Assembly (NCBI GenBank): GCA_020353215.1
Contig: CP070692.1
Coordinates: 139 to 64,138, forward strand
Source of the DNA: Deltaproteobacteria bacterium
GTDB taxonomy: Bacteria > Desulfobacterota > Syntrophobacteria > BM002
DNA: 64,000 nt
Direction of reading: 5' to 3'
Shown here: one piece after another, positions 11,663 to 43,617 of the stretch
Numbering within the stretch: the first letter of the stretch is position 1
How the letters are laid out: every line of letters begins with the position of its first letter
Translations under genes and position numbers: made by a program
Notes under the pieces: generated by a model
Database searches by the model: none
The model's input: only the letters and a program-made list of their open reading frames with translations
What the model was told of the DNA's origin: nothing

Positions 11663-11840
11663 GGCTCATTCCCAATGAAGTAGTGTGTCCACTCGGTGGT
11701 TCCAATTCCGTTGCCACTGTCCGATCCATCCCCTGTAGTGGAAGTCTGAAAGTCGTGGCGTCTCGCGGCTGCTTCTCTTGTCCACGGACGACTGTGCGAT
11801 TCATGAAACGGAAACACCTTGCAGGGAAAAGGGGATGGAT

Positions 11841-13337: not shown

Positions 13338-14058
13338 GTCTTCGCCTCACCAAAGCTTCAGCGTTCTTGATCATCTGTTGAAAACCACGGATATTGATAC
13401 CCGCCCCCAGAGCGATCCTTTCAGCGCTCTCAGTGGTTATCAAGTCTCCAGGTGCGTGGGCGTCTGAATTGATCACCAGGCTTGCTCCCTCTTCCTGGGC
13501 CATCCGGACTACGTGCCCGTTGGTAAAGGAATGGCCCTTGCGGCCTGATATCTCAAGAAGAATGGACCGTTCTGCCGCCAAGGCGACCTCCTCCCGTGTA
13601 ATTAGACCCGGATGGGCGAGAATATCAATGTCCGCTTCAAGTCCGGCCCGGTTGGTCCCAGGTAACACCGGTTCTACGATGGTCTCACCGTGGACAACCA
13701 CCAAACTCGCCCCTAGCTGTCTGGCCTCTGTGGCCAAAGGACCGATGGTGGCCGGCGGTACGTGTGTGAGCTCAATACCCGCAACTGCCTGAATGCGATT
13801 GTGACGATTGATTTCTGCCACAACTCTAGCAACCCGGGGAACGATGAAATCCAGATTGCCCCGGTCAGCATGGTCGGTGATACCTATATAACGGTACCCT
13901 ATCTCCTCGGCGCGCCGCACCAGTTCGCTAACCACAAGTACACCGTCGCTGAACAAAGAATGCGTGTGCAGGTCGATCAAAGCGTCTCTCCTTTCGTCCT
14001 GCAAATCGCCCGCACTCTCCCCCCTGGGGCAGAAAGCCAGAGGCGTGTGCAACACCAT
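13321..14058 (-). CDS. PHP-domain (histidinol-phosphatase-like) metal-dependent phosphoesterase
   Basis: IDLHTHSLFSDG, GITDHAD, VVHGE and NSDAH motifs. It overlaps the transglutaminase-like gene by 17 nt. Confidence 0.8.
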   Translation of the reverse strand: MVLHTPLAFCPRGESAGDLQDERRDALIDLHTHSLFSDGVLVVSELVRRAEEIGYRYIGITDHADRGNLDFIVPRVARVVAEINRHNRIQAVAGIELTHVPPATIGPLATEARQLGASLVVVHGETIVEPVLPGTNRAGLEADIDILAHPGLITREEVALAAERSILLEISGRKGHSFTNGHVVRMAQEEGASLVINSDAHAPGDLITTESAERIALGAGINIRGFQQMIKNAEALVRRRHAENR

Positions 14059-14222
14059 GCAGGATCCATTCCGAATTTAAGATTACAAACTACAAGTGTC
14101 AGCCTGCAGATAATCACTGAAAAAGATCGGGGAGAGTTCTGGTTGGACGTATTTCGGGTTAGGGTCTTCAATTGCGCGCAAGTGACACGTTACTTACCAC
14201 ACGTTTCACCTGACAAGTTGGG

Positions 14223-14720
14223 TCACATCTTGTACTTGCCGAAGTCTTCCGGCGAAAGATTTTCCAGGATGTCGGTCCATTTTTTGGCGTCTTTGTCCCG
14301 GATTTCCGCCTTGCCGACCGTCTCAACCTTGCCGGATTTCTCGATCACTTTCTCACTGACGAAAATCCTGGCGTTTGCCCTTAGGGCGATGGCCAGGGCA
14401 TCACTGGGCCGGGCGTCGATCCTGGTCTCCTTGCCATTCACTAGCAGGTAGATCCAGGCATAAAAGGTATTATCCCGTAAATCGCAGACCTCTACTCTAT
14501 CCACCTTAGCTCCCAGGTGGCCCATCAGATTCTTGATCAAATCGTGAGTCATCGGTCGAGCGAACTGGACCTGTTCGAGCTCCGTGGCAATAGCAGTGGC
14601 TTCCAACAGTCCGATCCAAATGGGTACCGAAGTATCACTGTTGGTATCTTTCAAGACAACAATCGGTGTATTGGTATGTGGATCCATAGTGAGACCCGAA
14701 ATCTTCATTTCCCGCACCAT
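14223..14720 (-). CDS. Bifunctional nuclease (BFN/DUF151) family protein
   Basis: PIVVLKD...VPIWIGLLEATAIA...RPMTHDL...FYAWIYL...IDARPSDALAIALR matches the BFN pattern. The start is placed at MVREMKISG; the longer ORF to 14765 would run into miaB. Confidence 0.8.
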   Translation of the reverse strand: MVREMKISGLTMDPHTNTPIVVLKDTNSDTSVPIWIGLLEATAIATELEQVQFARPMTHDLIKNLMGHLGAKVDRVEVCDLRDNTFYAWIYLLVNGKETRIDARPSDALAIALRANARIFVSEKVIEKSGKVETVGKAEIRDKDAKKWTDILENLSPEDFGKYKM

Positions 14721-16099
14721 GATCTCTCCTTCACAGCATGCAAGCTCGAACTCTCTTTCACACATACCACACCCTCCAACGAGTGGGCATGCGCGGCGGT
14801 AATTAGCACTGGTAACTCTTCACCCACTAGTTGGGGCGTGCCGAGAAAATTAACCACCCGGTTGTGCGGCGTTCGGCCGCTGAGCTGGGAACCTCCAGCC
14901 TGACTCGGGCCTTCCACCAACACCTGGGAGATCTCCCCCACCTGGGCCTTATTGCGCTCCATAGTCAACCGTTCCTGCAAGCTTTGCAGCGTTTGTAGTC
15001 GCCGCAACTTAACCTCTTCCGGCACTTTGCCGCCCAGACGGCTGGCCGCCGTCTGGGGTCGATCCGAATACTTGAAGGAGAAGATTGATTCGAATGAAAC
15101 TTCCTCCATCAGACTCAGAGTCTGTTGAAAATCATCTTCACCCTCTCCTGGAAAACCAACGATCATGTCGGAGGATATGGCCACGTCCTCGCGTATGGCT
15201 CTCAATCGTCTCACCTGTTGCAAGTAATGGGCCCGCGTGTAGCCACGTTTCATCAGCTGCAGAATCGGATCGGATCCAGATTGCACTGGGAGATGAATAT
15301 GGGGGCACAAAGGCTCTAGGTCAGCGAAGCAGTGCATTAGCGACGACGACAGATCTTTGGGGTGTGAAGTGGTGAAGCGAATCCGGAGCAACCCTTCAAC
15401 CCGGGCCAGCAAACGAAGCAATCCAGCAAAGTCGGGCTCCCCTGTAACTCTTAAGCCGTAAGAGTTCACGTTCTGGCCCAACAGAGTTACCGCCCGGACG
15501 CCGCGTTCAACAAGGCTTTCCACTTCTCGGATAATTTCCTTACTCGGCCTACTGACTTCTCTACCGCGAACGATGGGCACGATGCAATACGTGCAGAAGT
15601 TATCGCAGCCCCGCATAATCGTCACGTAAGCAGATACCTCGGGTCGCGATGCCAGAGATCTGCCGTCGACCTCATCCCCGAAATCGTAAGAGAAGCCCAC
15701 AGATGCCTGCCGTTCCCCGGTAGTTTCGTATCGGGCGATCATGGCAGGCACTTCCCGGATGGAGTGGGTCCCCACCACCAAATCCAAATGCGGCAGTCTT
15801 CGCAGCAGTTCCTCACCATGCTGCTGAGCAACACACCCACCCAGAGCGACGACGAGATCCGGCCGCGACCGTTTCAGTGGTTTCAGTCGGCCAAGGTAAC
15901 TGAATGCTTTCTGTTCGGCTTTGTCGCGAACAGTGCAGGTGTTGATAAAAATCAGGTCGGCCTGACGATAATCTTCCACTAGCTCCCACTGGTGTTTGCC
16001 AAGGATCTCCACCAGCCGCTCGCTGTCGTAACGGTTCATTTGGCAGCCAAAGGTTCTGATGAAAAGTCGTCCGACCTTGCTATCATTGGGTAGTCTCAT
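14705..16099 (-). CDS. miaB: tRNA-2-methylthio-N6-dimethylallyladenosine synthase
   Basis: UPF0004 domain FIRTFGCQMN, radical-SAM motif CDNFCTYC, C-terminal TRAM domain. Confidence 0.9.
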   Translation of the reverse strand: MRLPNDSKVGRLFIRTFGCQMNRYDSERLVEILGKHQWELVEDYRQADLIFINTCTVRDKAEQKAFSYLGRLKPLKRSRPDLVVALGGCVAQQHGEELLRRLPHLDLVVGTHSIREVPAMIARYETTGERQASVGFSYDFGDEVDGRSLASRPEVSAYVTIMRGCDNFCTYCIVPIVRGREVSRPSKEIIREVESLVERGVRAVTLLGQNVNSYGLRVTGEPDFAGLLRLLARVEGLLRIRFTTSHPKDLSSSLMHCFADLEPLCPHIHLPVQSGSDPILQLMKRGYTRAHYLQQVRRLRAIREDVAISSDMIVGFPGEGEDDFQQTLSLMEEVSFESIFSFKYSDRPQTAASRLGGKVPEEVKLRRLQTLQSLQERLTMERNKAQVGEISQVLVEGPSQAGGSQLSGRTPHNRVVNFLGTPQLVGEELPVLITAAHAHSLEGVVCVKESSSLHAVKERSWCGK

Positions 16100-30016: not shown

Positions 30017-30337
30017 ATGGCGGAGATCATTCCCAATAAGAGGTTTTTTAGAATCGGTGAAGTTAGTCGGATCGTCGGTGTGCCAGCCCATGTGCTGCGC
30101 TATTGGGAACGAGAATTTTCTTTGGTTCGACCTCGGCGTAATCGATCAAAACAACGGTTGTACCGTCGGAGCGATTTAGAAATACTTCTGCACATCAAGA
30201 ATTTGCTCCATCACCAGAAATACACGATCGCCGGAGCGCGGAAGAAACTGAAGCCTGAGACCACCTCCGAATCCCTGGAAAAAACCCTAGAGGAGATCAA
30301 GGGTGAACTCGTGATCCTAAGACGATTGCTGGATTGA
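30017..30337 (+). CDS. MerR-family transcriptional regulator (small, HTH only)
   Basis: FRIGEVSRIVGVPAHVLRYWEREF is a MerR HTH. The start is taken at ATG 30017; the ORF opens at TTG 30011. Confidence 0.8.
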   Translation: MAEIIPNKRFFRIGEVSRIVGVPAHVLRYWEREFSLVRPRRNRSKQRLYRRSDLEILLHIKNLLHHQKYTIAGARKKLKPETTSESLEKTLEEIKGELVILRRLLD

Positions 30338-30916
30338 ATCCACTTTTTCAGCAAGAGACATATGAATCATAAGTCTATGAGTTGCATATCGTTTGTATTC
30401 TAGCCGTCCGGCCTCGATAACAATAAATCTAAATCCTTCATCATCCGTTTGCTCAACTGCAAACTCCAGCTCAAGATCTAAGCTGTTGAGGTGACAACTG
30501 GGCATGACATTGCATGCTTTACGGATGTTGGTCTTGATTTGCCGGATCGCAGGTAATAGTCCCAAATTGGAATATCCCGTTGTCACTGAGGAGTCTTGAG
30601 ACGGAGTCATCTTGAGCTTCACGAGATGTATCGTTCCTTTGGAAAATCCATCTTCTGCTCCTACTTCCAGACCAGCGACTTCAAATCTTACATCGGATTT
30701 CGAGTTCCTGACAGCTACAACGGCTAAATGAAGTTCAAATCTTTCAATTACTATCTTGAAATCCGCTGATTCAACGCCCTGTGCTGCCATAACTTCATCT
30801 TTTACTGCACGCACAATCTCTTCTACACTGAAGGTTAGTCCCTCTGCATAGCCTAGTGAAAGCCCTGAAACAAGGCTCAATACAATCAATGTTAATCCTA
30901 GTTTTACGCGTAACAT
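30317..30916 (-). CDS. Secreted/lipoprotein-like protein with two tandem Trypco2-like domains
   Basis: Signal peptide MLRVKLGLTLIVLSLVSG. Two about 80-aa units each show 'helix - hydrophobic beta pair (FELHLAVVAV / LDLELEFAV) - acidic loop - ...H.VKLKMTP / HRLMIHMS'. The gene is noticeably AT-rich relative to its neighbours (by eye). Confidence 0.5.
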   Translation of the reverse strand: MLRVKLGLTLIVLSLVSGLSLGYAEGLTFSVEEIVRAVKDEVMAAQGVESADFKIVIERFELHLAVVAVRNSKSDVRFEVAGLEVGAEDGFSKGTIHLVKLKMTPSQDSSVTTGYSNLGLLPAIRQIKTNIRKACNVMPSCHLNSLDLELEFAVEQTDDEGFRFIVIEAGRLEYKRYATHRLMIHMSLAEKVDSIQQSS

Positions 30917-31798
30917 AGAATACTCCAATACATTCGCCTGTGGATTGAAGACAGACTATGCTGTTAACTCACGCTAGCACGTTTGTCCTCGATATGGGTC
31001 GGCAACATTAGGTTCTAGTCTCTTCCAAGTCCTTGATTCTAGCTCTCCATGGACAGAGGAGCAATCCGGAGAAAGTATGGTTTTTATCTCATCCGTGAAT
31101 CTGTACGTTCTAGATACGCCCAGATAGGGGTGTTCAAGCACGAGAGTCCTGGCCCCCATTAGTCCCAAAGCGCCTGCTGACACCTGATTTATGGGTGTCC
31201 TGCCGGATGTCCACCTCGCAACCTTCGAGGTACTGGCGAGATAGGCCTCTGATCCGGGGCCCTGCAGTTGGTGGAACGTCCATCCTCACGGTCCCGCGAC
31301 ACCGGTTTGTGGATAGCACGGACCAGCTGACCTCCGCCCCAACTGCGGCTCTGCCGGCTCCTAGCATAGTTGGAGATTACTGAGGTCTGCTTTATATGCA
31401 GCATTAGTTAGAGACTCTAGATCGCACAGGGCAAGTGAGCTTGACCAAGTCAATTACAGACGAGACTGGGAAACTGTATTCTGCTTGCATGTGCTCTTAT
31501 AACCAGCCGTACGATTAGGTTTCGTGATCAGTACAATACTGGCCCCAGTGTGGTCTAACATTTGCATGGATGAGGCAACCGAGACCCAATCAATGAGAAT
31601 CATTACCGTAATACTACAGCACCCAATCTGTGCCTTAGGGCGGTAAATCATTGTATTCATTGCCTTACAGAAAAGTAATTGCATTTTGATTTCAATATTG
31701 CTATAGATACCCATGGCTCGTTTTACTAACGAAATTAAACGTATACGGGCAAAACCATCGCCTTGAGTTATGTTGCGGGCGTAAAGAGCGGGGTGCTT

Positions 31799-32194
31799 AT
31801 GGATCTTGTCTTGTCTAAAGAAGCAATAAACAATATCGTTGGCGTTCTTGATGAAGATCTGCTCAGAGCTGGCGCTGATTGCGCCCTTCTGGTCGACCGC
31901 TCCGGCAACCTCATTGTCACCCGCGGCGATCCAGCCAACCTTGATGTGGTGGCTCTTGCCGCGCTGTCCGCGGCGAATTTCGGCGCAACTTCCGAAATAG
32001 CTAAACTCATTGGCGAAGATGATTTTGCGCTGCTCTTCCACAAAGGGAAGAATGAGAATATCCATTTCACCAAAGTCGGGAAGGGTTTCATTCTGATCAC
32101 CCTTTTTGGCAAGGACGTGTCTCTGGGGTTGATTCGATTGAAGACAGCTAAGGTGACGGACCAGCTAATACCCATTCTGACCGGAGAGCAGTAA
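31799..32194 (+). CDS. mglB: Roadblock/LC7 GTPase-activating protein MglB
   Basis: LLVDRSGNLI...LAALSAANFGATSEIAKLIGEDDF...FH.G...SLGLIRL is colinear with Myxococcus MglB as I remember it. It ends 2 nt before mglA. The start is uncertain (TTG 31763 or ATG 31799). Confidence 0.85.
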   Translation: MDLVLSKEAINNIVGVLDEDLLRAGADCALLVDRSGNLIVTRGDPANLDVVALAALSAANFGATSEIAKLIGEDDFALLFHKGKNENIHFTKVGKGFILITLFGKDVSLGLIRLKTAKVTDQLIPILTGEQ

Positions 32195-32196
32195 CC

Positions 32197-32808
32197 GTGT
32201 CATTTATTGATCTGAGTAAGAACGAAGTACAGTGCAAAGTCGTTTACTACGGTCCTGGACGTGGCGGTAAGACCACGAATCTGCTTTACGTTCACCAGGC
32301 AATGACAGAGGCGGTACGTGGCAAGATGGTCACAATCGACACCAAGGGCGATCGAACGCTCTTTTTTGATTTTCTCCCCTTGGCACTAGGCAAGATTCAG
32401 AACCTTAGCATCAAGATCCAACTTTATACGGTGCCCGGTCAGGTAATGTATAACGCCACTCGCAAACTGGTGCTGAAAGGGGTGGACGGTGTGGTGTTTG
32501 TGGCGGATTCCCTCAAAGTCCAGAAGGAAAAGAACGTTGAGAGCTTAGACAATCTTAGACAGAATCTCGCAGAGGATAACATTGACATTGGGGAGATTCC
32601 GCTTGTCCTTCAGTACAACAAGAGAGACCTGGGAGGTTCCAATATTCCCATCCTGTCCGTGGAGGAGATGGAAGAAGATCTCAACAATAGACTTCAGGTC
32701 CCCTGGTTTACAGGAAGTGCGCTGAAGGGTGACGGTGTGTTTGAGACCTTGAGGGAGATCAGCAAGCGAACCGTGAAACAAGTGAGCCGCAAGCTGCTCT
32801 CCCGTTAG
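32197..32808 (+). CDS. mglA: Ras-like polarity GTPase MglA
   Basis: MSFIDLSKNEVQCKVVYYGPGRGGKTTNL (P-loop), DRTLFFDFLP, LYTVPGQ (MglA-type switch 2), KGVDGVVFVADS, QYNKRDL. It is near-colinear with M. xanthus MglA. Confidence 0.93.
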   Translation: MSFIDLSKNEVQCKVVYYGPGRGGKTTNLLYVHQAMTEAVRGKMVTIDTKGDRTLFFDFLPLALGKIQNLSIKIQLYTVPGQVMYNATRKLVLKGVDGVVFVADSLKVQKEKNVESLDNLRQNLAEDNIDIGEIPLVLQYNKRDLGGSNIPILSVEEMEEDLNNRLQVPWFTGSALKGDGVFETLREISKRTVKQVSRKLLSR

Positions 32809-32836
32809 AAACCACCATTGCCCGGGAGGAGGGTAC

Positions 32837-34882
32837 ATGGATTTAACCGACGACACTCTGGCGAGTGTTGATGCCAGAGAGCTCGAGGCCGACATTGACA
32901 GGGCAATAGACGAACTCTTCGTACAGAAGGGAGGGGCACCGGACCCTGCATCTCTCGAAGAAGAGCCGCCAGAAAAGGCAGAAGAAAAGCCCGCGGAAGA
33001 ATCAACCTTAGACCTGGTAACTGAACCAGCAGTCGAGCTTTTGGCGCCGTTGAAAGAGAGCCTCCTCACTCTGGACTGGGAGATCAGCACCCACAATATC
33101 AGGGCCTTCGAGAAAGAGTTGCAGGTCGTCAGCGAAGACTTCGGTGAAGACCGTCACGGCATGGCAGTGATAAAGATGACCCAGGGGGTCCTTAAATACC
33201 TGCATGCCACCAAGGGTTCGGCTGCGCCCATATCGATCCAGTTTCTTCATGCGGCCACACGTGGCCTTGACCTTTTTCTGCGCGAGCCAGGGGCAGAATC
33301 CAGCGAGCGTGGTCGAGTCATGGAGGAGTTGCTTGGCCAGTTTCGGCGGTTAAAAGCCGAGATCCAGAAGTTGAAGCCGAGGGCGACGCCACCAGCTGAA
33401 GAGGTGGCAGCGGTGCCAGCGGTCGAGCCGGTTGCTCAGCCAGTGACACCGGAGGAGCCAGAGCCGGAACCATCAGTGAAAGAAGAGCTCAGCTTTGAGG
33501 AGCTTCCCGAAGAAAGACCATTGATGGATACACTTCCAGAGCACGAGCCGCTCCTAGAGGAATTCCTCGAGGATGAAGCATTCCCTGAGGAGACGCAAAC
33601 GGAGGACTCGCCATTCGATGACTTTCTCGAAACAGAGCAGTTACTTGAGGGTCTGCCCGAGGAAGAGCCGTTACTTGAGGATCTGCCCGAGGAAGAGCCG
33701 ATCCTTGAACAGGTAGTGGAGGAAGAGTTGGCTAGCGCACCGCTCGGAGGAGAAAAGCCAAAGCTAGACGAACTTCCGGAAGAAGAACCAGTCATAGAGC
33801 TTTCTTTTGAACCGGCGGAAGCGACTCCCGCAGGCGCAACAGCCCGAGTAGAGATTCCAGGGGCATTGCGGCAATTGACCCAGGAAACCAGACGCCACAG
33901 CAAGGAGCTGTCCACTGCGCTGGCGGCACTTACTCAAGAAACCGGCAATTTCTTTGGCCATCTGATGCAGACAGTCGCAGGCAAACCGGGTCTTGAGAAA
34001 CTTGAGAGTCTCTTTGGCAATGTCGAGAAAACCCTGGGAGAAAAGCTGACCAATGCACAGGCGCTTTCTGGGAATCTGGACGCAGCAGTAAGGAAACTGG
34101 AGCAGAGTTTGGGCCAATTGCAGGAAGGAGCTATTGCTCCAGGTTCGCAGGCTGTCATGAAGTCAGAAGTGGAGAGAATCCAGCAGGCGGTCCAGATTTT
34201 GACTAAGGTGGCGTCAAGACTGAAACAGAACCCGAGCGATATAGACGCCGAACAGGTACCGAACTCAGAGGATGCAAACCCTGATAGTCGGATTGACACC
34301 CCTGAGTTCAGCGTGGACTCATTGGAGTCCGAAGAAGCTAAAGAGACATTCACTCTCGAGCTGACAGACCAGTTGCCACCAGAGCCGAGTGGCGCTGCAC
34401 CGCCGTCACTGGACGCGATTTACCTCGCCAATGTCGCGGCCAGTACTTTGGGCCTTCCTACAGACAGGGTCGCGAATGTCTTCAAGATCTCAAAGGGAAA
34501 GGCGAAGGCTTTGCGCAAGAGAGGGTACGCAAGGTTGACCGACTTCAAAGCGGCGTTCCGCAGCCTCAAGCGAGGCATGACGGGCCCACTCGCCGACCAA
34601 GAGGTCAAGTCATTGAAAAGAATAAGATTTCCTCTGGTCACTCTCAGTCCGGAAACCTTGGGTAGCCATGGCATCAAAGCGACGGGCTCCGCCAGAGGTA
34701 TCGTCCTGTTCAGTACCGGCGAGCGTCACGGCGCCTTGTTTACTGATGAAGTCATGCAAAGGATACCTTACGATGTGATGAGCTACAGAGAAGCTGGCCT
34801 CTCCGGAGAAGTGAGCGGTACGGCGATCATTGAAGGAGACTTTGAGATAAGTGTGATTGATCCGGACTACGTGATCCAATAG
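32837..34882 (+). CDS. Acidic scaffold protein: Hpt-like N-domain - Glu/Pro-rich repeats - coiled coil - CheW-like C-domain (no kinase core)
   Basis: The Hpt-like helix VLKYLHATKGSAAPISIQFLHAATRGLDLFL has its His at 33203-33205. LPEEEPLLEDLPEEEPILE repeats follow. The C-terminal 157 aa (34409-34879) carry a CheW-like pattern (GIVLFSTGERHGALFTDEVMQ...GTAIIEGDFEISVIDPDYV). No HATPase motifs are present. Confidence 0.65.
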   Translation: MDLTDDTLASVDARELEADIDRAIDELFVQKGGAPDPASLEEEPPEKAEEKPAEESTLDLVTEPAVELLAPLKESLLTLDWEISTHNIRAFEKELQVVSEDFGEDRHGMAVIKMTQGVLKYLHATKGSAAPISIQFLHAATRGLDLFLREPGAESSERGRVMEELLGQFRRLKAEIQKLKPRATPPAEEVAAVPAVEPVAQPVTPEEPEPEPSVKEELSFEELPEERPLMDTLPEHEPLLEEFLEDEAFPEETQTEDSPFDDFLETEQLLEGLPEEEPLLEDLPEEEPILEQVVEEELASAPLGGEKPKLDELPEEEPVIELSFEPAEATPAGATARVEIPGALRQLTQETRRHSKELSTALAALTQETGNFFGHLMQTVAGKPGLEKLESLFGNVEKTLGEKLTNAQALSGNLDAAVRKLEQSLGQLQEGAIAPGSQAVMKSEVERIQQAVQILTKVASRLKQNPSDIDAEQVPNSEDANPDSRIDTPEFSVDSLESEEAKETFTLELTDQLPPEPSGAAPPSLDAIYLANVAASTLGLPTDRVANVFKISKGKAKALRKRGYARLTDFKAAFRSLKRGMTGPLADQEVKSLKRIRFPLVTLSPETLGSHGIKATGSARGIVLFSTGERHGALFTDEVMQRIPYDVMSYREAGLSGEVSGTAIIEGDFEISVIDPDYVIQ

Positions 34883-34952
34883 ACCTCCAACGGCCGAGTT
34901 GGTCGGCCTCCTCCCTTGCGAGCCGGGTTGTTACTAGGGGTCGTCTCTGACC

Positions 34953-37208
34953 ATGCAATCGGAAAACGCTAACCAGCCAATCTCTAGTGACCTGTCTCAG
35001 ATCCAAGGGAAGATCGAGGAGGCCGAACTTTACTTAACTCAAGGACTCTTCGAAGAAGCCCGCCAAATCTACCAGAACCTTCTGGACCACATTGGTCCTT
35101 CGAGTCAAGAAGCTGGAATCAATACTTCCGCCCATCACGCCGGCGAAATGCAGCGCTCATTCATTAAAGAACAATTGGCGCTCATTGACCGTCAGGAGGC
35201 AGACTTTCTCGGAAAACCTCCAAGAGCCGAACCAGAAAAGCCAGCCGTCCCAGGAAAAGAAGGAGCTGCCCTCTTCAATCGAGGCTGGGCACTTCTGGAC
35301 ATCGGGATTTTCGCCGATGCGATCCAACAGTTTCATAGTGCCGCCAGGCTGAATTATCGGCCGGTTGAATGCCTGATGGAAATCGGCAAGGCACACATTC
35401 AACTCGGTCAACATAAGAAGGGAATCAAAGTGCTTGAAGAGGCCTCACGGCGCAAGGACATTAGTGCCGAGGACCGCGACCGCTTGTTGGGGCAGATGGC
35501 AAGAGCCTATGAAGCAGCGGCTGACAAGAAAAGAGCCCTTGAGCTTTATCGTCAGTTGGCTGTGCGGGATCCGTATGACGAGGAGGCAGCGAGCAAAGTC
35601 CAAAGCTTGAGGGAGGAAGGCCATCGATATCAACTCAATATGGCAAAGGTTCATCTGCAAAATGGACAGTTTCCGAAAGCAATCGAGACGCTGCGCTCTT
35701 TGCAGCAGAAGAAGGAGGCTCCAGGGCAGAAGCTAGTGCCTGTGTATGAGCAAATCATGCAACAAGATCCGAGTAATCTCGACGCGGTGATGGATCTGGT
35801 CGAAATTTGTAAAAATCAAGGTAACTTGCTACAGGCCAGCCAGTATCTGGAAAGAGTTCAAGAAGCCCGCCCACAGGACGGTTGGTGCCAGCAACAGCTC
35901 ACAGACATTTATACGATGATGCTCGACAGCGGCGCGGCCGGCCCCAACATCCGACTCAAGCTCGCCGGTCACCTTCTCCGATCTGACCAATTGGCCCGGG
36001 CCCTAGAAGAGTATCTGGAGGTGATGCTGGAGGACGGTGCTTACAAGATGGCCGCTTTGAACCAGTTGGGAGAGGCACTGCTGGAGCGCCAAGACTACGA
36101 TCGCCTTCTGGAGATATTGGGAGATGCGTGTCCATGGGTGGAGTCCACCGAGGAAGGAGCTGACGCCCTAAATTATTACTACCTATTGGGGATCGCCTGT
36201 GAAAAGAAACACTTCTACGATCAAGCTCAGGCTTACTTTCAGCGCGCCGTTTCCATTGATCCAGACCACAAGGGAGTACGCGCAAAAGTAGAAAACCAGT
36301 CCAAAGGACCGCTTATTTCCCATGGCAAGTCTTTCCTCCCTGTCCGGTTGCCCGAGAGCCTGGAGTACCAGATACAGGAGGACCTTGGACAAGACGAGAT
36401 TCACCAGGTTTTCAAAGTCCGCGAGGTCCCCGGGGGAGACTTTCGGTTGGCGAAAACCCTTTTGCACAATCATTCTGGGTCAGGCAAAATCAAAAATTTT
36501 GTTGCCCAATGGGCTTACCAACAGGTAACCATGGAAAACCGGAATATCATCCAGGTGTTGGACGTGGCTGGACGGGAGGGGCAGTTCTATATAATAACGG
36601 AAGATCTCCCGGGCAGCCTGGAGGAGTTGCTTAAAGAAAAGACACACTTGCCTTTGGCCGCGGCGGTTTGCATGGCGAGAGGTCTGCTCAACGCCCTCGC
36701 ATATGCCCATTCTCATAGAGGCACCGACGATACCTTGAGGAAAATCTTTCATCTCGCCCTGAATCCAAAACGGGTGTTCATCAGCGCCGATGGCGTAGTT
36801 CCGAAGATTGCCGATTTCGGCTTAACCCTCATGCTGGAGAAACAGCTAGGTTGGGCCCCCAACTACCAGGATCTAGCACCGTTCCAGCTGCAGTACCTGG
36901 CACCGGAACAGTTTGACCGCGTTCCTTCACGGATGCCTGATAAGATGAAACAAGCCGCAGATCTGTATACCTTTGGGGTATTATTCTACCAGATGGTCAC
37001 TGGGAAGGTGCCCTTCGAAGGGCCATCACCTGATGACTTCAAGACCCAGCATGCTGAACGATATCCGGTGCCGCCACGAGTGTTTATTTCTAGCATTCCC
37101 GCTAAACTGGATGAAGCCATCCTCAAATGCCTCCACAAAGATCCGAAGAAGCGGTGGCGCACGCCAACTGAACTAGATCTAGCCCTAGAGAAGATCCACC
37201 TGGGCTGA
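34953..37208 (+). CDS. TPR-repeat protein fused to a degenerate Ser/Thr protein-kinase (pseudokinase) domain
   Basis: About 450 aa of TPR-like helices come first, then a kinase fold. LAKTL stands in for VAIK, HLALNPKRV replaces HRDLKPxN, and ADFG, YLAPEQ, DLYTFGVLFYQMVTG and KRWRTP are retained. Confidence 0.8.
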   Translation: MQSENANQPISSDLSQIQGKIEEAELYLTQGLFEEARQIYQNLLDHIGPSSQEAGINTSAHHAGEMQRSFIKEQLALIDRQEADFLGKPPRAEPEKPAVPGKEGAALFNRGWALLDIGIFADAIQQFHSAARLNYRPVECLMEIGKAHIQLGQHKKGIKVLEEASRRKDISAEDRDRLLGQMARAYEAAADKKRALELYRQLAVRDPYDEEAASKVQSLREEGHRYQLNMAKVHLQNGQFPKAIETLRSLQQKKEAPGQKLVPVYEQIMQQDPSNLDAVMDLVEICKNQGNLLQASQYLERVQEARPQDGWCQQQLTDIYTMMLDSGAAGPNIRLKLAGHLLRSDQLARALEEYLEVMLEDGAYKMAALNQLGEALLERQDYDRLLEILGDACPWVESTEEGADALNYYYLLGIACEKKHFYDQAQAYFQRAVSIDPDHKGVRAKVENQSKGPLISHGKSFLPVRLPESLEYQIQEDLGQDEIHQVFKVREVPGGDFRLAKTLLHNHSGSGKIKNFVAQWAYQQVTMENRNIIQVLDVAGREGQFYIITEDLPGSLEELLKEKTHLPLAAAVCMARGLLNALAYAHSHRGTDDTLRKIFHLALNPKRVFISADGVVPKIADFGLTLMLEKQLGWAPNYQDLAPFQLQYLAPEQFDRVPSRMPDKMKQAADLYTFGVLFYQMVTGKVPFEGPSPDDFKTQHAERYPVPPRVFISSIPAKLDEAILKCLHKDPKKRWRTPTELDLALEKIHLG

Positions 37209-37531: not shown

Positions 37532-38761
37532 CTATTTTCTTTTGAGGAAGGAAAGGATACCCCCAGCCTTCTCTTTGCCGCCGACTGCTTGGAGGGCTTC
37601 CTGTTGAAACTGTTCCACGGTTTGATTGATGGCGCTGAGAATTGTCCCTTTGAGCTGGGGCTTTACAGGGAGTTTTTGCCAGGCGGCGCCTGGCTTTATC
37701 AAGGCCTGGATGCTCGCCGTCATCTCCTTCTCATTAAGCACCTCTGTCTGCTTGTGCAGGATTACAAGGATCCAGGCATTGAAAGAGTTGAGAATTGCCT
37801 CCTTACCAGGGGCAGAATCAGCTGCTGACTGAAGCATCCTGTGAATGTTGGTCTTGGCGTCTTTCGAGCAATCGTAGGTTCGCAGCAGTTCCAGTTGGTG
37901 GTCTGGCAACTGATTTTTCGCCTCTTGCAGCAGGGGGAGGGCTTGTGTGCCCACCGCCTTTTCCGAGATCTTCCGCATATTCTGCAGCACTTCATGATAA
38001 ATCTGGATGATGATGGAAGACTCGTTCCGGTCCCCCGGGGCGGCTGTGGGGCCGGACTCGCTCTTCTCGATTATGCCGGAGGAGATCAAAGAGTTGATCA
38101 CGCGGTAGACAACAAACTCGTCGTGCCCGCTGTCAACGATGATCTGCTGGACCGACCTTTTCCCGTCCACGAGTGAAATAACACGCCATTCGTTGGCGGT
38201 GAGGTTGACCGAGCTTTTCTGTTGCTCCACACTTCTGTTAATTTTGAAAACGACTTGGGGGTGTGGAATATTCTTCTTGAGAATGGCCCATTCATCTACT
38301 CGACGAGTGCCCTCCAGAATAATCTCCATGTGATTTAGCTCGGTACTAAATTCTGCGTCCACACTGATCTCCTGGTCCACATACTCAAAATCGCCCTGTG
38401 GCCACAAGAACAAGTCATAGAGAATGTCCCGTACCTGCTGATGAAGGAATTTTTTTAACGTGTCTAACGATATATAACCCTTTTCCACCAGGATCTTCCC
38501 AAGTCGCTCTTGCTTGTGTTTAGCTAGAGTCAGCGCTTTTTGGAGTTCCTGAGCCGAGATGATACCTTTGGCGCGCAGTAGGTAACCAAGCCTTACCTCC
38601 TTCTGGTTTCCAACTGCGTGGATGATACTGCCATTCTTGAAGTAGACCTTCGCCAATCGCCCCTTTTCAGCGATGGTGAGAATCCCTGTTTTCTTATCTC
38701 CGGAGAGTAGCTGAAGGATGCTGGCGAGATTGAAGGTCTCAATGTTGCCCTTCAGTGACAT
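37532..38761 (-). CDS. PATAN (DUF4388) domain protein with inserted MshEN/T2SSE_N-type c-di-GMP-binding motifs
   Basis: The N-terminus GNIETFNLASILQLLSGDKKTGILTI...VYFKNGSIIHA is DUF4388-like. Residues 57-109 read RLGYLLRAKGIISAQELQKALTLA-KHKQE-RLGKILVEKGYISLDTLKKFLHQQ. The PATAN second half follows (DILYDLFLWPQGDFEY). Confidence 0.8.
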   Translation of the reverse strand: MSLKGNIETFNLASILQLLSGDKKTGILTIAEKGRLAKVYFKNGSIIHAVGNQKEVRLGYLLRAKGIISAQELQKALTLAKHKQERLGKILVEKGYISLDTLKKFLHQQVRDILYDLFLWPQGDFEYVDQEISVDAEFSTELNHMEIILEGTRRVDEWAILKKNIPHPQVVFKINRSVEQQKSSVNLTANEWRVISLVDGKRSVQQIIVDSGHDEFVVYRVINSLISSGIIEKSESGPTAAPGDRNESSIIIQIYHEVLQNMRKISEKAVGTQALPLLQEAKNQLPDHQLELLRTYDCSKDAKTNIHRMLQSAADSAPGKEAILNSFNAWILVILHKQTEVLNEKEMTASIQALIKPGAAWQKLPVKPQLKGTILSAINQTVEQFQQEALQAVGGKEKAGGILSFLKRK

Positions 38762-38860: not shown

Positions 38861-39862
38861 TCAACTCTTATGTCTGAATGCAAACCTCTCAGTCGGTCGA
38901 GACAGACGCAGAAATTGGTGGGCCAGTGTGGCAACACGATGCACATCTTGGGGGTGAAACCAGTGAATCCCCGAATCCCGGCGAAACCAGGTAAGCTGTC
39001 TCTTGGCGTAGCGACGGGTATCCCGCTTCAATGTCCGCAACGCTTCAGACAGTGGCAAATCGGCTGTTACATGCTCCAACAAATGTCGGTAGCCTAATGC
39101 CTGCATGCTCTTGAGCTGCGGTCCATACCCAAGCTTCACAAGCTCTTTGACCTCTTGGAGAAATCCCTGCGCCATCATTTCTTCCACCCGCCGATCAATT
39201 CGGTCATAGAGTTCACGCCGGGGAAGGTTCAGGCCGATTTTCAGAGCCTGAAACGGCCGTTCTCGAAAACCGTGCTCGCGGCGCAGTGCGGAGACAGGCT
39301 TTCCCGTGCACTCCCACACCTCCAGAGCACGGATGATCCTGAACAGATCGTTGGGATGGAGTCTTTGACCGGTTAGAGGATCCACCTCCTGCAGTCTGCG
39401 ATACAGACTTTTTCCGTTGTCCTTCTTCGCCTCCTCGCGCAACCGCTGCCGCACCTGTCTGTTAGAAGGAGCTCCAGGAAAGATCCCGTGAAAAACGGCT
39501 TTCAGGTATAGACCGGTACCTCCCACTACGAGAGCCAACTTTCCATGGCTTGCCAGGTTCTCAATCAGCGCTCGAGCCATCGTGCTGTATCGGCACACGT
39601 CAAAGTCTTCATCAGGATCCAAGATGTCCAGGAGATGATGAGACACCTCCGCCCGTTCCGCAGCCGTCGGTTTTGCGGTACCAACGTTCAGGAATCGATA
39701 TACTTGTACAGAGTCGGCGTTGATAATCTCAGCATCGAGGTCTTTGGCCAACTGGAGAGCGAGCCTGCTTTTCCCCACCCCGGTAGGGCCCATTATTGCG
39801 ATGACCCTCGGTCGTTCGTCCATCTTCCGTCCCGGCTGATCTTCCTGGCAAGAATTCACCAT
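38861..39862 (-). CDS. miaA: tRNA dimethylallyltransferase
   Basis: VIAIMGPTGVGKSRLALQLA, DSVQVYR, ERHHLLD. The true start is possibly at MDERPRV (39823). Confidence 0.9.
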   Translation of the reverse strand: MVNSCQEDQPGRKMDERPRVIAIMGPTGVGKSRLALQLAKDLDAEIINADSVQVYRFLNVGTAKPTAAERAEVSHHLLDILDPDEDFDVCRYSTMARALIENLASHGKLALVVGGTGLYLKAVFHGIFPGAPSNRQVRQRLREEAKKDNGKSLYRRLQEVDPLTGQRLHPNDLFRIIRALEVWECTGKPVSALRREHGFRERPFQALKIGLNLPRRELYDRIDRRVEEMMAQGFLQEVKELVKLGYGPQLKSMQALGYRHLLEHVTADLPLSEALRTLKRDTRRYAKRQLTWFRRDSGIHWFHPQDVHRVATLAHQFLRLSRPTERFAFRHKS

Positions 39863-40025: not shown

Positions 40026-41813
40026 CTACGACCTATTGAAAATCCGCTCCAATTCGGCCTTAGTGAGCTTCCACCACAGCGGGCGGCCGTGTGGACAAGT
40101 GGCGCATTGCTGCAAGCCGTCAAGTTGTCGCAACAATGCTACCATCTCTTCATTTGTCAGCCGTTGTCCGGCTTTGATGGCCAGCCGGCAGGCCATTGAT
40201 TGCAGTAGGTCCTCGAGTACTTCCCCTGACGTCGGGTAACTCCCACGGCTGCATCCGGTAGCCACTATTTCACGCAGAAGAACGAGTGGTTCCTGCCGCA
40301 GTGCCACCGCCGGTACCGACCTTACCACAAGGGTATGATCGCCGAATGGATCAAGACTGAACCCCAGTTGCTGAAACAGTGACAAAGTCTCTTCCAACCA
40401 GACTGCCTCCTCGGCAGTAACTTCCACGGTGGCCGGAGCCATCAGAATCTGGCTCGCCAACGGTCCCTTAGTTGACTCCCTCCGAAGAGCTTCATAATGC
40501 GCACGCTCGTGCGCTGCATGCTGATCGATGAGAATCAAACCATCTGGGGTTTCACAAAGTATATAGGTGTTGTGCAACTGCCCAATCACGGTTAGTTCCC
40601 CGAAAAATGGACCAATATCCTTTGGCTCTTCCTCCGCGACTTTGGTGGTCTCCTCCTCTGCAAGCATCTCATACCGCACCGAGTCTTTTATCATGAAGCC
40701 TGGAGTTCCGGGCTCTGCGATCTGCTGCTTTTCTCCCAAAGAGAAACCCAATCTCTGGGGGGTCGGCACCACAGCGGGTTGCAGTCTCGTGTCGGTGCCA
40801 AGCCGGCGCTGCCACCGTCTTCTCTCCATACCAACCAAGGCATTTTCTGCTGCACTGGTCACCGCCTTGAAAACAGCACCGGGATTGTGAAAACGCACTT
40901 CAGCTTTGGCTGGATGAACATTCACGTCCACCAGCTCTGCTGACAACTCCAAGAACAAAACTCCCATGGGGAATTGCCCCTTGGGGATCAATGTTCTGTA
41001 AGCTTCCATAAGCGCAACGCTTAGAAGCCGATCTCGAATCGGTCTACCATTTACGTACAGGAAGAGCATTCGACTGTTGGGTCTCCGCACCTCCGGTGGG
41101 CTCAGGTATCCCGAGATGTTCACTGGGGTTTCGTTGTGTGAACAAGACAGCCAAGACTGTGCCAGCCCCTTGGGGAAGACCTGTTCTAGACGCTGCTGCA
41201 AACTCGTTGCCGCTGGCCAATCATGCCCCTGACGGTTTCCATGACGTAGAGAAAAATGGATATCCGCTCTAGCTAGGGCTAACCGGGTGACCGTATCTAG
41301 CACGTGAGCGAACTCGGTTCTCTCCCTCCTTAGAAACTTGCGTCTTGCTGGTTGATTGAAGAACAAATCGCGAATCCAGAGCTGAGTTCCGGGCGGGCAG
41401 CCACATTGTCGGACCTCCTTGACAACCCCGGCGGCAACGCGCAAACATGTGCCTGCGGTAGACTCCCTGGTTCTGCTCTGGAGCTCAACTCTCGATACTG
41501 CTGCCAGACTTGGCAACGCTTCGCCACGAAAGCCGAGAGTCTTAATGGCGACCAAGTCTTCCTCAGTGCAAATCTTGCTTGTTGCATGCCGCTCCAAGGC
41601 CAAAAGAACGTCGTCTTCTTCCATCCCAGTACCGTTGTCTATTACCCGAATGTTCCGACAGACTGGCCCTTCTATTTCCACAATTATCTTCTTCGCCTGT
41701 GCATCTATGGCATTCTCTACGAGCTCTTTGACCACAGAGGCTGGTCTCTCCACAACCTCGCCAGCGGCGATTTTGTTGGCTAAGTTTTCCGCCATGACGC
41801 GAATCTTGGCCAT
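40026..41813 (-). CDS. mutL: DNA mismatch repair protein MutL
   Basis: The start is at MAKIRVMAENLANKIAAGEVVERPASVVKELVENAIDA (GHKL ATPase). The C-terminal dimerisation/endonuclease region includes QHAAHER. The annotated ORF extends 30 codons further upstream. Confidence 0.92.
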   Translation of the reverse strand: MAKIRVMAENLANKIAAGEVVERPASVVKELVENAIDAQAKKIIVEIEGPVCRNIRVIDNGTGMEEDDVLLALERHATSKICTEEDLVAIKTLGFRGEALPSLAAVSRVELQSRTRESTAGTCLRVAAGVVKEVRQCGCPPGTQLWIRDLFFNQPARRKFLRRERTEFAHVLDTVTRLALARADIHFSLRHGNRQGHDWPAATSLQQRLEQVFPKGLAQSWLSCSHNETPVNISGYLSPPEVRRPNSRMLFLYVNGRPIRDRLLSVALMEAYRTLIPKGQFPMGVLFLELSAELVDVNVHPAKAEVRFHNPGAVFKAVTSAAENALVGMERRRWQRRLGTDTRLQPAVVPTPQRLGFSLGEKQQIAEPGTPGFMIKDSVRYEMLAEEETTKVAEEEPKDIGPFFGELTVIGQLHNTYILCETPDGLILIDQHAAHERAHYEALRRESTKGPLASQILMAPATVEVTAEEAVWLEETLSLFQQLGFSLDPFGDHTLVVRSVPAVALRQEPLVLLREIVATGCSRGSYPTSGEVLEDLLQSMACRLAIKAGQRLTNEEMVALLRQLDGLQQCATCPHGRPLWWKLTKAELERIFNRS

Positions 41814-42177
41814 GCAAACCTCCCTTACTACCTCATGTATCGCATTCACTCTTGTTTGACAAGTTTCAAGGAAGTCAAAGGACGACTTCTTTCCAATCAG
41901 CACAAACCACTCAACTCAAGCCTAAATTCTTGTGGGTTAGAGTATGCGAGATGAATTCAGTTGACCACTTATGACAACCAACCAAGATTCCTTGCGGTTA
42001 AAGGTTGACACACTTTTTGAAATAGGCTATTCATGGACCGAATTTCGGCCACAGAGTGAGATAACATCCGGTAACAATTACCAATCTCACCTGACCTATG
42101 CCTACTAATGGCACCTATAGGTATGGCTACAGAGTTCGCTTCTCCGATATCCTTCTGTCACCCACCTGTAGGTCAAT

Positions 42178-43617
42178 ATGCCAGCTGATCGTGAACTCAC
42201 CGATATCACTGCGCTGTTGAGTAACTGTCTTGATGCATTTACCGCTGCTCTGTTTGTCTGGGACGATCGCAAAAGACTCCTAACCATGAGGGCATTTCAT
42301 AGTCTGAGCAAGCAAATTATTCCCAACGTACAGTTCACCCCAGAAGATGGAGGTCTGGTAGGGTGGGTAGCTAAGAGCAAGCAGCCGCTTGCCATCGACC
42401 ACTTTGATCGCCGCAATAAGACCATTCCTTACTACCACAAAGATGAAAACATCAAGTCTTTCTTGGCTACGCCTTTGGGAAAAAGCGGAGGCGTGCTGTG
42501 TGTAGACAGTAAACGCCAGTATGTCTTTACCAATAAGGATCAGAAGCTTCTTTCCGGCTTTGCGACTGTGGTGTCCAACACACTCAGTGGGGAACGGACG
42601 AACCGCCGTCAGCAACTTATGCGCCAGTTGATGACCTTGTGGTATCGTGCTGACCCCTTGCCAGCCGACTCGGATGATCCGGTACCTTATCTCACCCGTC
42701 TTCTGGACTCTGCTCGGCCGTACTTACGAGCCGATGCCGGCTTAGTTGCGGTGCCCATCAAGGAAGGGAAATTTCTGCAATTAGTTGCCACGTCCGGGGA
42801 AGTTCCAGAGCATTTGCTGAACAGGGCCCAACCGACACACCAAGGAATCGCCGGCTGGATCTTCCAGAACCGCAAGTCCCTTGTTGTTCCCAAGTTCAGA
42901 TCCCGCACTCGAATTCCTTTCCTTTTCGGTCCGTCGGACGGCATGGGGAAGATAGGCGCCCTGATCGGTATGCCCCTAGCCTGGGAAGCAGATGAGGTGG
43001 GGGGAGTGATTTGTTTCATCCGCCGTGCGGAGGCTAGTTGGAACAGAGAAGAGATAGATGCCATAACTTCTGTAGTTAGACGGGCCACCCTGGTCCTACA
43101 GAACTTCAGTCTCCGACGCGAACTGGCCATAGTTCGCAATTTAGATCCGATCACCGAGGTGTGCAACGCCTATGCCTTCGACCGGGTTCTCAACAAGAGA
43201 CTCCAAGGCTGCCTAGATGCCAGTGTCACCCTTGGCCTCGGCATCATCACCATCGAGGGACTCGAGGCTTTGAGCACTAAGGTAGCGCTGTCAGATATGG
43301 CTGTCTTGCGCCAACGTGTCGCGGCAATCCTGCTTCAGCGGATGAAAGGCAAACAACTAATGGGCTCTCTCGATCCTGGGCGCTTTGCCGTTCTATTTGA
43401 GGATGAAACTTCGGGAGAAATCAGAGCGCAGCTCACAGACATGACGAGAGCCGTAAATCGGGAACTCCTGGAACGGCTGGAGGAGCCAGCACCAATGCAT
43501 GCGTTTTTCGGCTTTGCGCTGTATCCTCGAGACGCAACTGTATCGCGTGAACTGTGGACCGTGGCTTTTCAGGCGCTGAACACCCGAAGAAACAGTGTCT
43601 CTCTTGGCGCAACTTGA
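42178..43617 (+). CDS. GAF-GAF-degenerate GGDEF domain protein (catalytically inactive)
   Basis: Two GAF-like domains are followed by a GGDEF fold. DPGRF replaces GGDEF and TIEGLE replaces DxDxFK. No RxxD I-site lies 5 residues upstream. Confidence 0.75.
   Translation: MPADRELTDITALLSNCLDAFTAALFVWDDRKRLLTMRAFHSLSKQIIPNVQFTPEDGGLVGWVAKSKQPLAIDHFDRRNKTIPYYHKDENIKSFLATPLGKSGGVLCVDSKRQYVFTNKDQKLLSGFATVVSNTLSGERTNRRQQLMRQLMTLWYRADPLPADSDDPVPYLTRLLDSARPYLRADAGLVAVPIKEGKFLQLVATSGEVPEHLLNRAQPTHQGIAGWIFQNRKSLVVPKFRSRTRIPFLFGPSDGMGKIGALIGMPLAWEADEVGGVICFIRRAEASWNREEIDAITSVVRRATLVLQNFSLRRELAIVRNLDPITEVCNAYAFDRVLNKRLQGCLDASVTLGLGIITIEGLEALSTKVALSDMAVLRQRVAAILLQRMKGKQLMGSLDPGRFAVLFEDETSGEIRAQLTDMTRAVNRELLERLEEPAPMHAFFGFALYPRDATVSRELWTVAFQALNTRRNSVSLGAT

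Follow-up and report, generated by a model that had tools for sequence, protein, structure and literature searches.

The window analyzed here is a stretch of 64,000 nucleotides from a Deltaproteobacteria bacterium (GenBank assembly GCA_020353215.1, contig CP070692.1, positions 139 to 64,138). Its minus strand harbors a gene encoding a protein of 409 residues that is identical to an NCBI entry from a metagenome-assembled genome, where it is named solely 'DUF4388 domain-containing protein'. The N-terminal part of this protein is a PATAN (DUF4388) domain, into which is inserted a module of the MshEN_N type, the cyclic di-GMP (c-di-GMP) receptor module of the ATPase MshE. The parts of the gene are listed below with their coordinates in the window.

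37532..38761, minus strand: PATAN(MshEN_N)-winged helix-helical domain gene, 409 residues (list of open reading frames (ORFs); AlphaFold model with a mean predicted local distance difference test (pLDDT) of 84)
38285..38752, minus strand: PATAN/DUF4388 (PatA_N) domain including the insertion, residues 4-159 (Pfam PF14332)
38435..38593, minus strand: MshEN_N-type module ('alpha-clip'), residues 57-109, two helical hairpins, putative c-di-GMP site (NF053729, Foldseek, motif score)
38522..38593, minus strand: motif 1, residues 57-80, RLGYLLRAKGIISAQELQKALTLA, with deviations R63 (position 7) and A80 (position 24)
38507..38521, minus strand: spacer KHKQE, 5 residues, residues 81-85
38435..38506, minus strand: motif 2, residues 86-109, RLGKILVEKGYISLDTLKKFLHQQ, with Tyr at position 11 (Phe in MshE)
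38045..38209, minus strand: winged-helix-like domain, residues ~185-239 (sub-threshold Pfam TrmB; predicted helices)
37583..38032, minus strand: C-terminal all-helical domain, residues 244-393 (AlphaFold helices)
37535..37582, minus strand: disordered C-terminal tail, residues 394-409, ending KEKAGGILSFLKRK (pLDDT <50)

Identification of the module relies on the motif pair described for MshEN receptors, in which the consensus RLGxx(L/V/I)(L/V/I)xxG(L/V/I)(L/V/I)xxxxLxxxLxxQ occurs twice with a 5-residue spacer (PMC5013675). Residues 57-109 read RLGYLLRAKGIISAQELQKALTLA-KHKQE-RLGKILVEKGYISLDTLKKFLHQQ and follow the plan 24+5+24, with residue 57 starting at 38593 and residue 109 ending at 38435. 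The sequence agrees with the consensus at 19/22 constrained positions and has a spacer of exactly 5 residues. The next best site in the six frames of the window scores 12 and the maximum over 2000 shuffles of the protein is 13; chance origin of the motif pair is excluded. An earlier sequence-only reading of this DNA had placed two 24-residue motifs with a 5-residue spacer at exactly these coordinates and had listed the same three departures, Arg at position 7 and Ala at position 24 of motif 1 and Tyr at position 11 of motif 2, all of which are correct. The Tyr is conservative, as the Vibrio prototype MshE has Phe at this position.

The same reading called the motif pair 'textbook', which is an overstatement. 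Neither half of residues 57-109 matches the strict regular expression. With the relaxed pattern of Wang et al., [RKPN]hGxxhhxx[GAS]hhxxxxhxxxhxx[QNKRYWST], motif 2 passes and motif 1 fails, owing to Arg at position 7 and Ala at position 24, where the terminal Gln is expected. The relaxed pattern is a search heuristic, and both expressions under-call the family, so a profile and a residue-by-residue analysis were used instead. The curated NCBIfam model NF053729, which describes the c-di-GMP motif of MshE-related proteins, matches residues 57-109 over profile positions 1-53/53 at 52.3 bits (cutoff 38; E=3.7e-14). A phmmer search against PDB sequences places residues 53-117 in register with residues 5-69 of MshE (5htl; E=3.3e-5) and also matches the c-di-GMP-binding domains of Thermus PilF. 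Fourteen of the fifteen residues singled out by Wang et al., that is R, L, G, G, L, L and Q of each motif and a cross-motif Leu, are kept, the exception being Q32 of MshE, which corresponds to A80. The kept contact residues are R57, L58, G59, G66, L73 and L77 in motif 1 and R86, L87, G88, G95, L102, L106 and Q109 in motif 2.

The HMMER check proposed in the sequence-only reading had a divided outcome. The DUF4388 model PF14332 matches residues 4-159 over profile positions 1-122/122 (E=1e-35, 122.8 bits, cutoff 25). The Pfam T2SSE_N/MshEN model PF05157 gave no match in the 409-residue protein up to E 10 and none in 117 of its relatives up to E 0.001. The silence of PF05157 is due to the fact that the MshEN_N half alone is present, which makes NF053729 the appropriate model. 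In the structural model, PATAN strand 5 comes directly after the module and no MshEN_C (T2SSE_N1) follows, so the full MshEN/T2SSE_N arrangement is absent.

AlphaFold models of the full-length protein and of residues 1-182 were built on 108 and 117 homologues, respectively. For residues 1-182 the model has a pLDDT of 92 and a predicted template modelling score of 0.84, and the pLDDT of the module exceeds 90. The module forms helices at 58-64, 70-83, 87-93 and 99-117, so that the four-helix, two-hairpin fold of MshEN_N is present as judged from the AlphaFold model. Foldseek superposes it on c-di-GMP-bound MshE (5htl_B) with a root-mean-square deviation (rmsd) of 0.7 Å over 53 columns, at 43% identity and probability 1.00, and on the c-di-GMP-bound GSPIIB domain of PilF (8pdk_B) with an rmsd of 1.2 Å and probability 1.00; the residues 1-182 model repeats both superpositions. 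A structure prediction incapable of the paired helical arrangement had been named beforehand as a way for the assignment to fail, and the four helices do form. Taken together, the curated hidden Markov model, the sequence match to MshE and the structural superposition establish residues 57-109 as a bona fide MshEN_N-type module, as the sequence-only reading had proposed.

The models also show how the module is housed. The PATAN core comprises a strand at 2-6, a helix at 12-21, strands at 26-32, 35-42 and 45-51, then the module, followed by a strand at 124-129 and a helix at 144-162. In these models, the module is an insertion between PATAN strands 4 and 5, at the place of the known PATAN helical insertion; this position, flanked by the strands 45-51 and 124-129 in a domain with a full PF14332 match, is the one that had been predicted. 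The implied novelty of the arrangement is overstated, since the insertion is the previously described, general alpha-clip of PATAN domains. A Foldseek search of the PDB with the N-terminal model found no confident match for the PATAN core, returning weak matches of the actin/EutJ/PilM type at a probability of <=0.4.

Full-length homologues of ~400-440 residues, down to 36% identity, are present in Syntrophobacterales and Desulfobacterales, including Desulfamplus magnetovallimortis, Desulfospira joergensenii DSM 10085 and Desulfobacter latus AcRS2. The family has a typical length of ~410 residues and a common architecture of PATAN[MshEN_N], winged helix, helical domain and basic-hydrophobic tail, and all 108 full-length members match NF053729. 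Conservation was assessed in two alignments, of 30 and 108 sequences. G59 and G88 are invariant in both, while R57, L58, G66, L87 and G95 are invariant among the 30 sequences and kept in at least 90% of the 108. L73, L77 and Q109 are nearly invariant in the family and L102 is conserved. The putative ligand-contacting Gly and Leu positions are thus invariant or nearly so down to 36% identity.

The distribution of the insertion was surveyed by an exhaustive HMMER search of residues 1-165 against 1.84 billion cluster representatives. This search returned 10058 proteins at E<=1e-3, 3054 at E<=1e-10 (clusters at 50% identity) and 119 at E<=1e-30. The best 150 matches, with lengths of 95-1492 residues, mostly align over approximately the whole query (typically 1-165 to 1-165) and contain 176 PATAN domain matches. 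Residues 57-109 align without gaps in 132/176 of these domains, and the contact positions are widely kept: L58 in 150, G59 in 145, G88 in 166, G95 in 144, L102 in 154 and Q109 in 149. Only 14 retain the terminal Gln of motif 1 and only 58 the Arg of motif 2. Among diverse PATAN representatives, NF053729 matches 116/117 and PF14332 117/117; fusions to GGDEF, HDOD, HD, protein kinase or receiver domains occur in a few of these 117, and a TrmB-like winged helix in 28. The MshEN_N insertion is therefore a class-wide feature of PATAN domains and not peculiar to the gene studied here.

Two side observations concern the motif itself. Four large proteins among the matches (P0121-P0124, 1455-1492 residues) carry 4-6 PATAN copies each; the copies inspected each have their own 24+5+24 insertion, and several are nearer to the canonical motif than the 409-residue protein, for example RLGQVVVDREMASEAAVERGLAAQ-AKLGL-RLGETLVEQGALTKERLLEALKEQ. 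R63 (38573-38575, minus strand) is Arg in nearly all of the 30 family sequences, and the equivalent residue is Arg or Lys in 87/176 related PATAN domains. By these alignments, Arg at this place sets PATAN domains apart from the ATPase-type motif, position 7 of motif 1 being a core hydrophobic residue in MshE.

The module shares with the MshEN_N domains of Vibrio cholerae MshE and Thermus PilF GSPII the 24+5+24 plan, the RLG...G...L...L...Q pattern and the four-helix fold (PMC5013675; PDB 5htl, 8pdk). Unlike in MshE and PilF, it is spliced into a PATAN domain instead of lying at the N-terminus of a secretion or pilus ATPase, and it lacks the MshEN_C/T2SSE_N1 half. Motif 1 ends with Ala where MshE has Gln and places Arg at a core hydrophobic position, and binding by the 409-residue protein is a prediction. 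The PATAN domains with an alpha-clip, such as those of PatA, PixG, PixE and the cyanobacterial PATAN-REC proteins, resemble the present one in the full PF14332 match and in two repeated antiparallel hairpins at the same place. In contrast with the PATAN-REC proteins, the 409-residue protein has no Pfam match to a receiver domain (Response_reg), which sets it apart from the PatA type; it carries a winged helix, a helical domain and a basic-hydrophobic tail, and belongs to a Desulfobacterota lineage. The PATAN[MshEN_N] arrangement was already known, and this protein is a new, well-conserved example of it, not a new architecture.

The relationship of the PATAN alpha-clip to the N-termini of GspE and PilB was reported by Makarova et al. 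(2006), as cited in Han et al. (2021, bioRxiv 10.1101/2021.06.11.447907). None of the published descriptions of the PATAN insertion that we examined connects it with c-di-GMP. Conversely, the MshEN architectures of Wang et al. include no PATAN-inserted one, the sole relevant entry being MXAN_2809, an MshEN - HD-GYP - REC - DUF4388 protein (PMC5013675). PATAN-embedded modules were nonetheless already counted as MshEN in the 2016 census, as its printed supplementary fragments, which begin near residue 51 or within the protein, score against Pfam DUF4388: MXAN_4739 at 25.1, STAU_5589 at 22.1 and MXAN_6627 at 15.5 bits. In these Myxococcus and Stigmatella modules the motif lies at ~51-129 and is followed by the PATAN LF-W--G-YEF strand, as in the present protein. 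They were not named PATAN and were listed without experiments; they have other downstream domains and are not orthologues of the 409-residue family. Bd2402, an experimentally binding 'REC-MshEN_N-UNK' protein, was considered as a further PATAN-embedded case, and its printed fragment gave no database candidate and no Pfam match. Searches of the literature for MshEN paired with PATAN or DUF4388 found no statement that the PATAN insertion binds c-di-GMP.

The genes surrounding the PATAN gene provide insights into its putative partners and are as follows.

31763..32194, plus strand: mglB (Roadblock/LC7), first gene of the converging operon and putative functional partner (Robl_LC7 E=1.1e-11)
32197..32808, plus strand: mglA-type small GTPase (Pfam Arf/Ras; motifs GPGRGGKTT, TVPGQ and NKRD)
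32837..34882, plus strand: protein of 681 residues, conserved downstream of mglA (no Pfam or NCBIfam match, no family)
34953..37208, plus strand: TPR and Ser/Thr protein kinase, last gene of the operon (Pkinase E=5e-25 and multiple TPR families)
38861-39862, minus strand: miaA, upstream of the PATAN gene on the same strand
40026-41903, minus strand: mutL, upstream of the PATAN gene on the same strand
42178-43617, plus strand: GAF-GAF protein with a degenerate GGDEF, between mutL and mreB, at the same place in the syntenic locus L001

A Ras-like GTPase beside a Roadblock/LC7 protein, the hallmark of the MglA/MglB polarity module, is thus present in the window; the mglB product matches the NCBIfam MglB model with E=1e-15, below the equivalog cutoff. 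The sequence-only reading described the PATAN gene as following mutL-miaA, which is accurate, and as facing the mglBA operon, which is accurate for the operon as a whole: it does converge on the PATAN gene, and the gene that faces it directly, across a 323-bp gap, is the TPR-kinase gene, with mglA itself 4.7 kb off.

Nine metagenomic contexts and 80 species-level genome loci were compared for this linkage with tblastn. The count was limited to the 61 species-level loci with at least 6 kb downstream, and mglB-mglA was sought within 9 kb. A convergent mglB-mglA pair is found in 50/61 loci, namely in 8/12 of the close clade and in 42/49 of the clade at 36-47% identity, and the MglA orthologues of these 50 loci are 49-95% identical. 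The pairing with mutL-miaA and the kinase is limited to the close clade, and elsewhere the outer flanks are unrelated. Because the convergent pair persists while the outer flanks differ, the comparison gives strong evidence, at the level of gene order, for a functional tie of the PATAN family to the MglA/MglB module. Consistent with this, genes for MglA and MglB homologues are regular neighbors of PATAN genes (Han et al., bioRxiv 10.1101/2021.06.11.447907), and PATAN genes occur near group 1 and group 5 mglA genes (Wuichet and Sogaard-Andersen, PMC4316618). The suggested role of the protein in MglA-dependent polarity, previously drawn from this one locus, gains considerable strength from the count of 50/61, and the earlier interpretation is supported at every point that can be tested computationally.

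From these features, the favored reading is that the 409-residue protein is a c-di-GMP-sensing adaptor or partner of the MglA/MglB polarity module, and we assign it a rough probability of 0.55. The protein would be a cytoplasmic signaling adaptor that binds one c-di-GMP across its two helical hairpins, as in MshE and PilF. R57 with L73, L77 and L87 would sandwich one guanine and R86 with L58, L102 and L106 the other, while the Hoogsteen edges would be recognized by the backbone amides that follow G59 and G88, and Q109 would contact the ribose and phosphate. Binding is then expected to alter the PATAN surface or the oligomeric or membrane state of the protein, because the module is spliced into the PATAN core, and to affect the winged helix, the helical domain and the basic-hydrophobic tail. 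The altered PATAN domain would modulate the MglA/MglB switch together with the co-encoded 681-residue protein and TPR-kinase, and polar processes such as the placement of type IV pili could thereby be controlled.

The binding of c-di-GMP, its affinity and the coupling to MglA are all inferred for this protein. On the input side, the deduction draws on contact residues that are both intact and conserved, on a predicted conformation resembling the ligand-bound state and on the published properties of MshEN_N, XpsE and PilF. Isolated MshEN_N and varied fusions of it bind c-di-GMP at 14 nM-0.5 µM, and changes of Leu or Gly in MshE cause a more than tenfold loss of affinity or abolish binding (PMC5013675). 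Non-binding homologues such as XpsE have lost Gly and Leu contacts (G11V, L29R, G40L, L54H and L58C; PMC5013675), all of which are kept in the 409-residue protein. The fusions of PATAN(MshEN_N) to GGDEF, HDOD and HD in relatives were also counted in favor of this reading. The output is deduced from the conserved synteny, from the interactions of PATAN domains with PilB and PilC in Synechocystis, where PATAN regulators act on the type IV pilus motor (bioRxiv 10.1101/2021.06.11.447907), and from the precedent of MglA in Bdellovibrio. In the Bdellovibrio hub of MglA, TPR protein Bd2492, RomR and CdgA, a c-di-GMP receptor and a TPR protein are tied to MglA at the pole (Milner et al. 2014, PMC3983030); likewise, a TPR-kinase and a putative c-di-GMP receptor are encoded beside mglA at the present locus. 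The receptor of the hub is a degenerate GGDEF protein, not PATAN/MshEN_N, and mglB is absent there, so the resemblance is one of functional analogy only.

Several points weigh against c-di-GMP sensing or against the tie to MglA. Motif 1 lacks its terminal Gln, the residue in contact with ribose and phosphate, and has Arg at the core hydrophobic position 7, and position 80 is never Gln in the family; the loss of the Gln and the core Arg may lower or retune the affinity. R86 is confined to the close clade, and orthologues of 37-43% identity have S, H, A, P or K instead. The conserved 'ligand' leucines could instead be kept for packing on the PATAN core or on a partner. In 2/61 loci a mglA-like gene is present in another arrangement and in 9/61 none lies within 9 kb, and where the linkage exists it is convergent, not co-operonic. 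A diguanylate cyclase with an intact GGDEF is absent from the window, whose sole GGDEF-like domain is degenerate, and no c-di-GMP binding experiment on a PATAN-embedded module was found in the searchable literature. With regard to the altered residues, changes of Arg9, Asp12 and Gln32 in MshE altered the affinity at most fivefold (PMC5013675), and the motif-2 Arg is not essential, since PilF GSPIIB has Leu there and yet crystallised with c-di-GMP.

The alternative that best withstands these data is that the alpha-clip is a protein-interaction module without nucleotide binding, in the manner of GspE or XpsE, which mimics the PilB N-terminus and, at the pilus base or within the MglA/MglB complex, either shares a partner or competes for one, its motif being conserved for structural reasons. 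The same mimicry was proposed by Han et al. for cyanobacterial PATAN domains, without c-di-GMP, and XpsE retains the fold and does not bind (PMC5013675). The failure of motif 1 in the relaxed published pattern fits this view. So does the variation among PATAN domains in general, most of which have A, S or G in place of the motif-1 Gln and many of which have A, K or S in place of the motif-2 Arg. Nevertheless, the Gly and Leu contacts that non-binders have lost are kept and near-invariant in this family, NF053729 scores well over its cutoff, the predicted conformation is that of the ligand-bound state at 0.7 Å, and relatives are fused to domains of c-di-GMP turnover. We therefore regard a purely protein-binding clip as a serious, if unlikely, explanation.

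The winged helix raises the further alternative of a c-di-GMP-responsive transcription factor, in which the winged helix binds DNA, PATAN(MshEN_N) is the sensor and the adjacency to mglBA reflects regulation of the operon. The weak TrmB match, which recurs in 28/117 relatives, agrees with this proposal, as do the JGI labels of some orthologues as MarR-family or predicted transcriptional regulators, and a regulatory region could be common to convergent neighbors. The segment folds in the AlphaFold model into helices at 189-197, 204-211 and 215-227 and a strand at 231-233, but its TrmB score of 19.2 bits is under the Pfam cutoff of 25.6, so that membership in TrmB/MarR is not assigned. A count from the sequence gives a net acidic segment with a single basic residue in the putative recognition helix, EFVVYRVINSLIS, and the conserved basic-hydrophobic tail and the large helical domain are atypical of MarR/TrmB regulators. 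Moreover, convergent genes have no common promoter region, and the site of action of known PATAN proteins is the pilus motor or the membrane (bioRxiv 10.1101/2021.06.11.447907), which together make a transcription factor improbable. The least probable alternative by far is recognition of another cyclic dinucleotide such as 3',3'-cGAMP, with which some Desulfobacterota relatives signal; the Arg at position 7 and the small residue at position 24 would then retune the specificity. This view can appeal to the weak binding of cGAMP by MshEN (PMC5013675) and to the family-wide occurrence of R63 and a non-Gln position 24, which is not random drift, but the Gly-amide readout that selects guanine O6/N7 is kept in both half-sites, nothing in the window points to cGAMP signaling, and there is no precedent for an MshEN_N module that prefers a different ligand.

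Networks of c-di-GMP signaling contain many cyclases and few known receptors. To our knowledge, the Bdellovibrio hub is the sole known route from c-di-GMP to the MglA/MglB switch. Should PATAN-embedded MshEN_N modules prove to bind c-di-GMP, candidate receptors would number in the thousands among 'DUF4388' proteins, PATAN proteins would form a very large c-di-GMP effector family that was never named as such, and the linkage to mglB-mglA in 50/61 loci would offer a concrete system for how the second messenger sets cell polarity. That PATAN alpha-clips as a class are functional c-di-GMP sites, and that in Desulfobacterales and Syntrophobacterales the family of the 409-residue protein is dedicated to putting MglA/MglB under c-di-GMP control, is suggested tentatively, at odds that we place below even. 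If the modules do not bind, they illustrate cleanly how a motif for nucleotide binding can be put to structural or protein-binding use. The 409-residue protein is a clean test case both for binding by PATAN-embedded MshEN_N and for coupling of the messenger to MglA-dependent polarity. What has been gained is a better and well-supported annotation for one hypothetical protein, and not a new kind of system.

The remaining observations concern the C-terminal half of the protein and the neighborhood. The all-helical domain (residues 244-393), which has no Pfam or NCBIfam match, forms helices in the model at 244-282, 287-293, 302-311, 320-341, 344-355 and 368-393. The core of the tail, GG[IL][FL]S[FL], is kept across the family alignment and is basic-hydrophobic; the tail, KEKAGGILSFLKRK, has a MinD-type look by inspection and is a possible amphipathic membrane-targeting element. 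With the full-length model, Foldseek returns weak matches to SEAC/GATOR1 (E 0.04-0.2, probability 0.96-1.0, TM score ~0.16), which stem from the winged-helix and C-terminal part, as they are absent with residues 1-182 alone. GATOR1 is a GTPase-activating complex for Rag GTPases.

The GAF-GAF protein at 42178-43617 was considered as a local source of c-di-GMP and rejected, as it has DPGRF in place of GGDEF, lacks RxxD and scores 17.8 bits with Pfam GGDEF, below the cutoff; by its sequence, it is probably not an active cyclase. A promoter and terminator scan around the PATAN gene gave counts at shuffle expectation. Between pheT and mglB lies an ORF of 203 residues with a Trypco2 domain (trypsin-co-occurring domain 2; 30317-30928, minus strand), at whose position the syntenic locus L001 has a MerR-family gene.

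The conserved operon occupies 31763-37208 (plus strand) in the window, 11284-14884 in locus L004, 11530-16912 in L005, 9272-13198 in L008, 8381-12169 in L009 and 9228-13334 in L010. Outside the close clade it consists of mglB-mglA, an unknown protein of 526-910 residues, small ORFs and an ORF of 91 residues; the clade of the window has the TPR/Ser-Thr kinase in place of the small ORFs. The 681-residue protein shares a module of ~130 residues with its counterparts of 584 residues in L004 (E=3e-11) and 910 residues in L005 (E=3e-14), and this module matches three separate stretches of the 910-residue protein. The genes that accompany mglB-mglA in this operon may represent an undescribed set of MglA partners in Desulfobacterota. 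In one clade, locus L002 (17620-19878) contains a second mglA-like gene followed by genes for a PatA_N and cNMP_binding protein and a PilZ protein, and loci L055 and L083 of the same clade have a mglA-like gene ~6.5 kb downstream on the same strand. Here again, an MglA-type GTPase is found together with PATAN and cyclic-nucleotide receptors.

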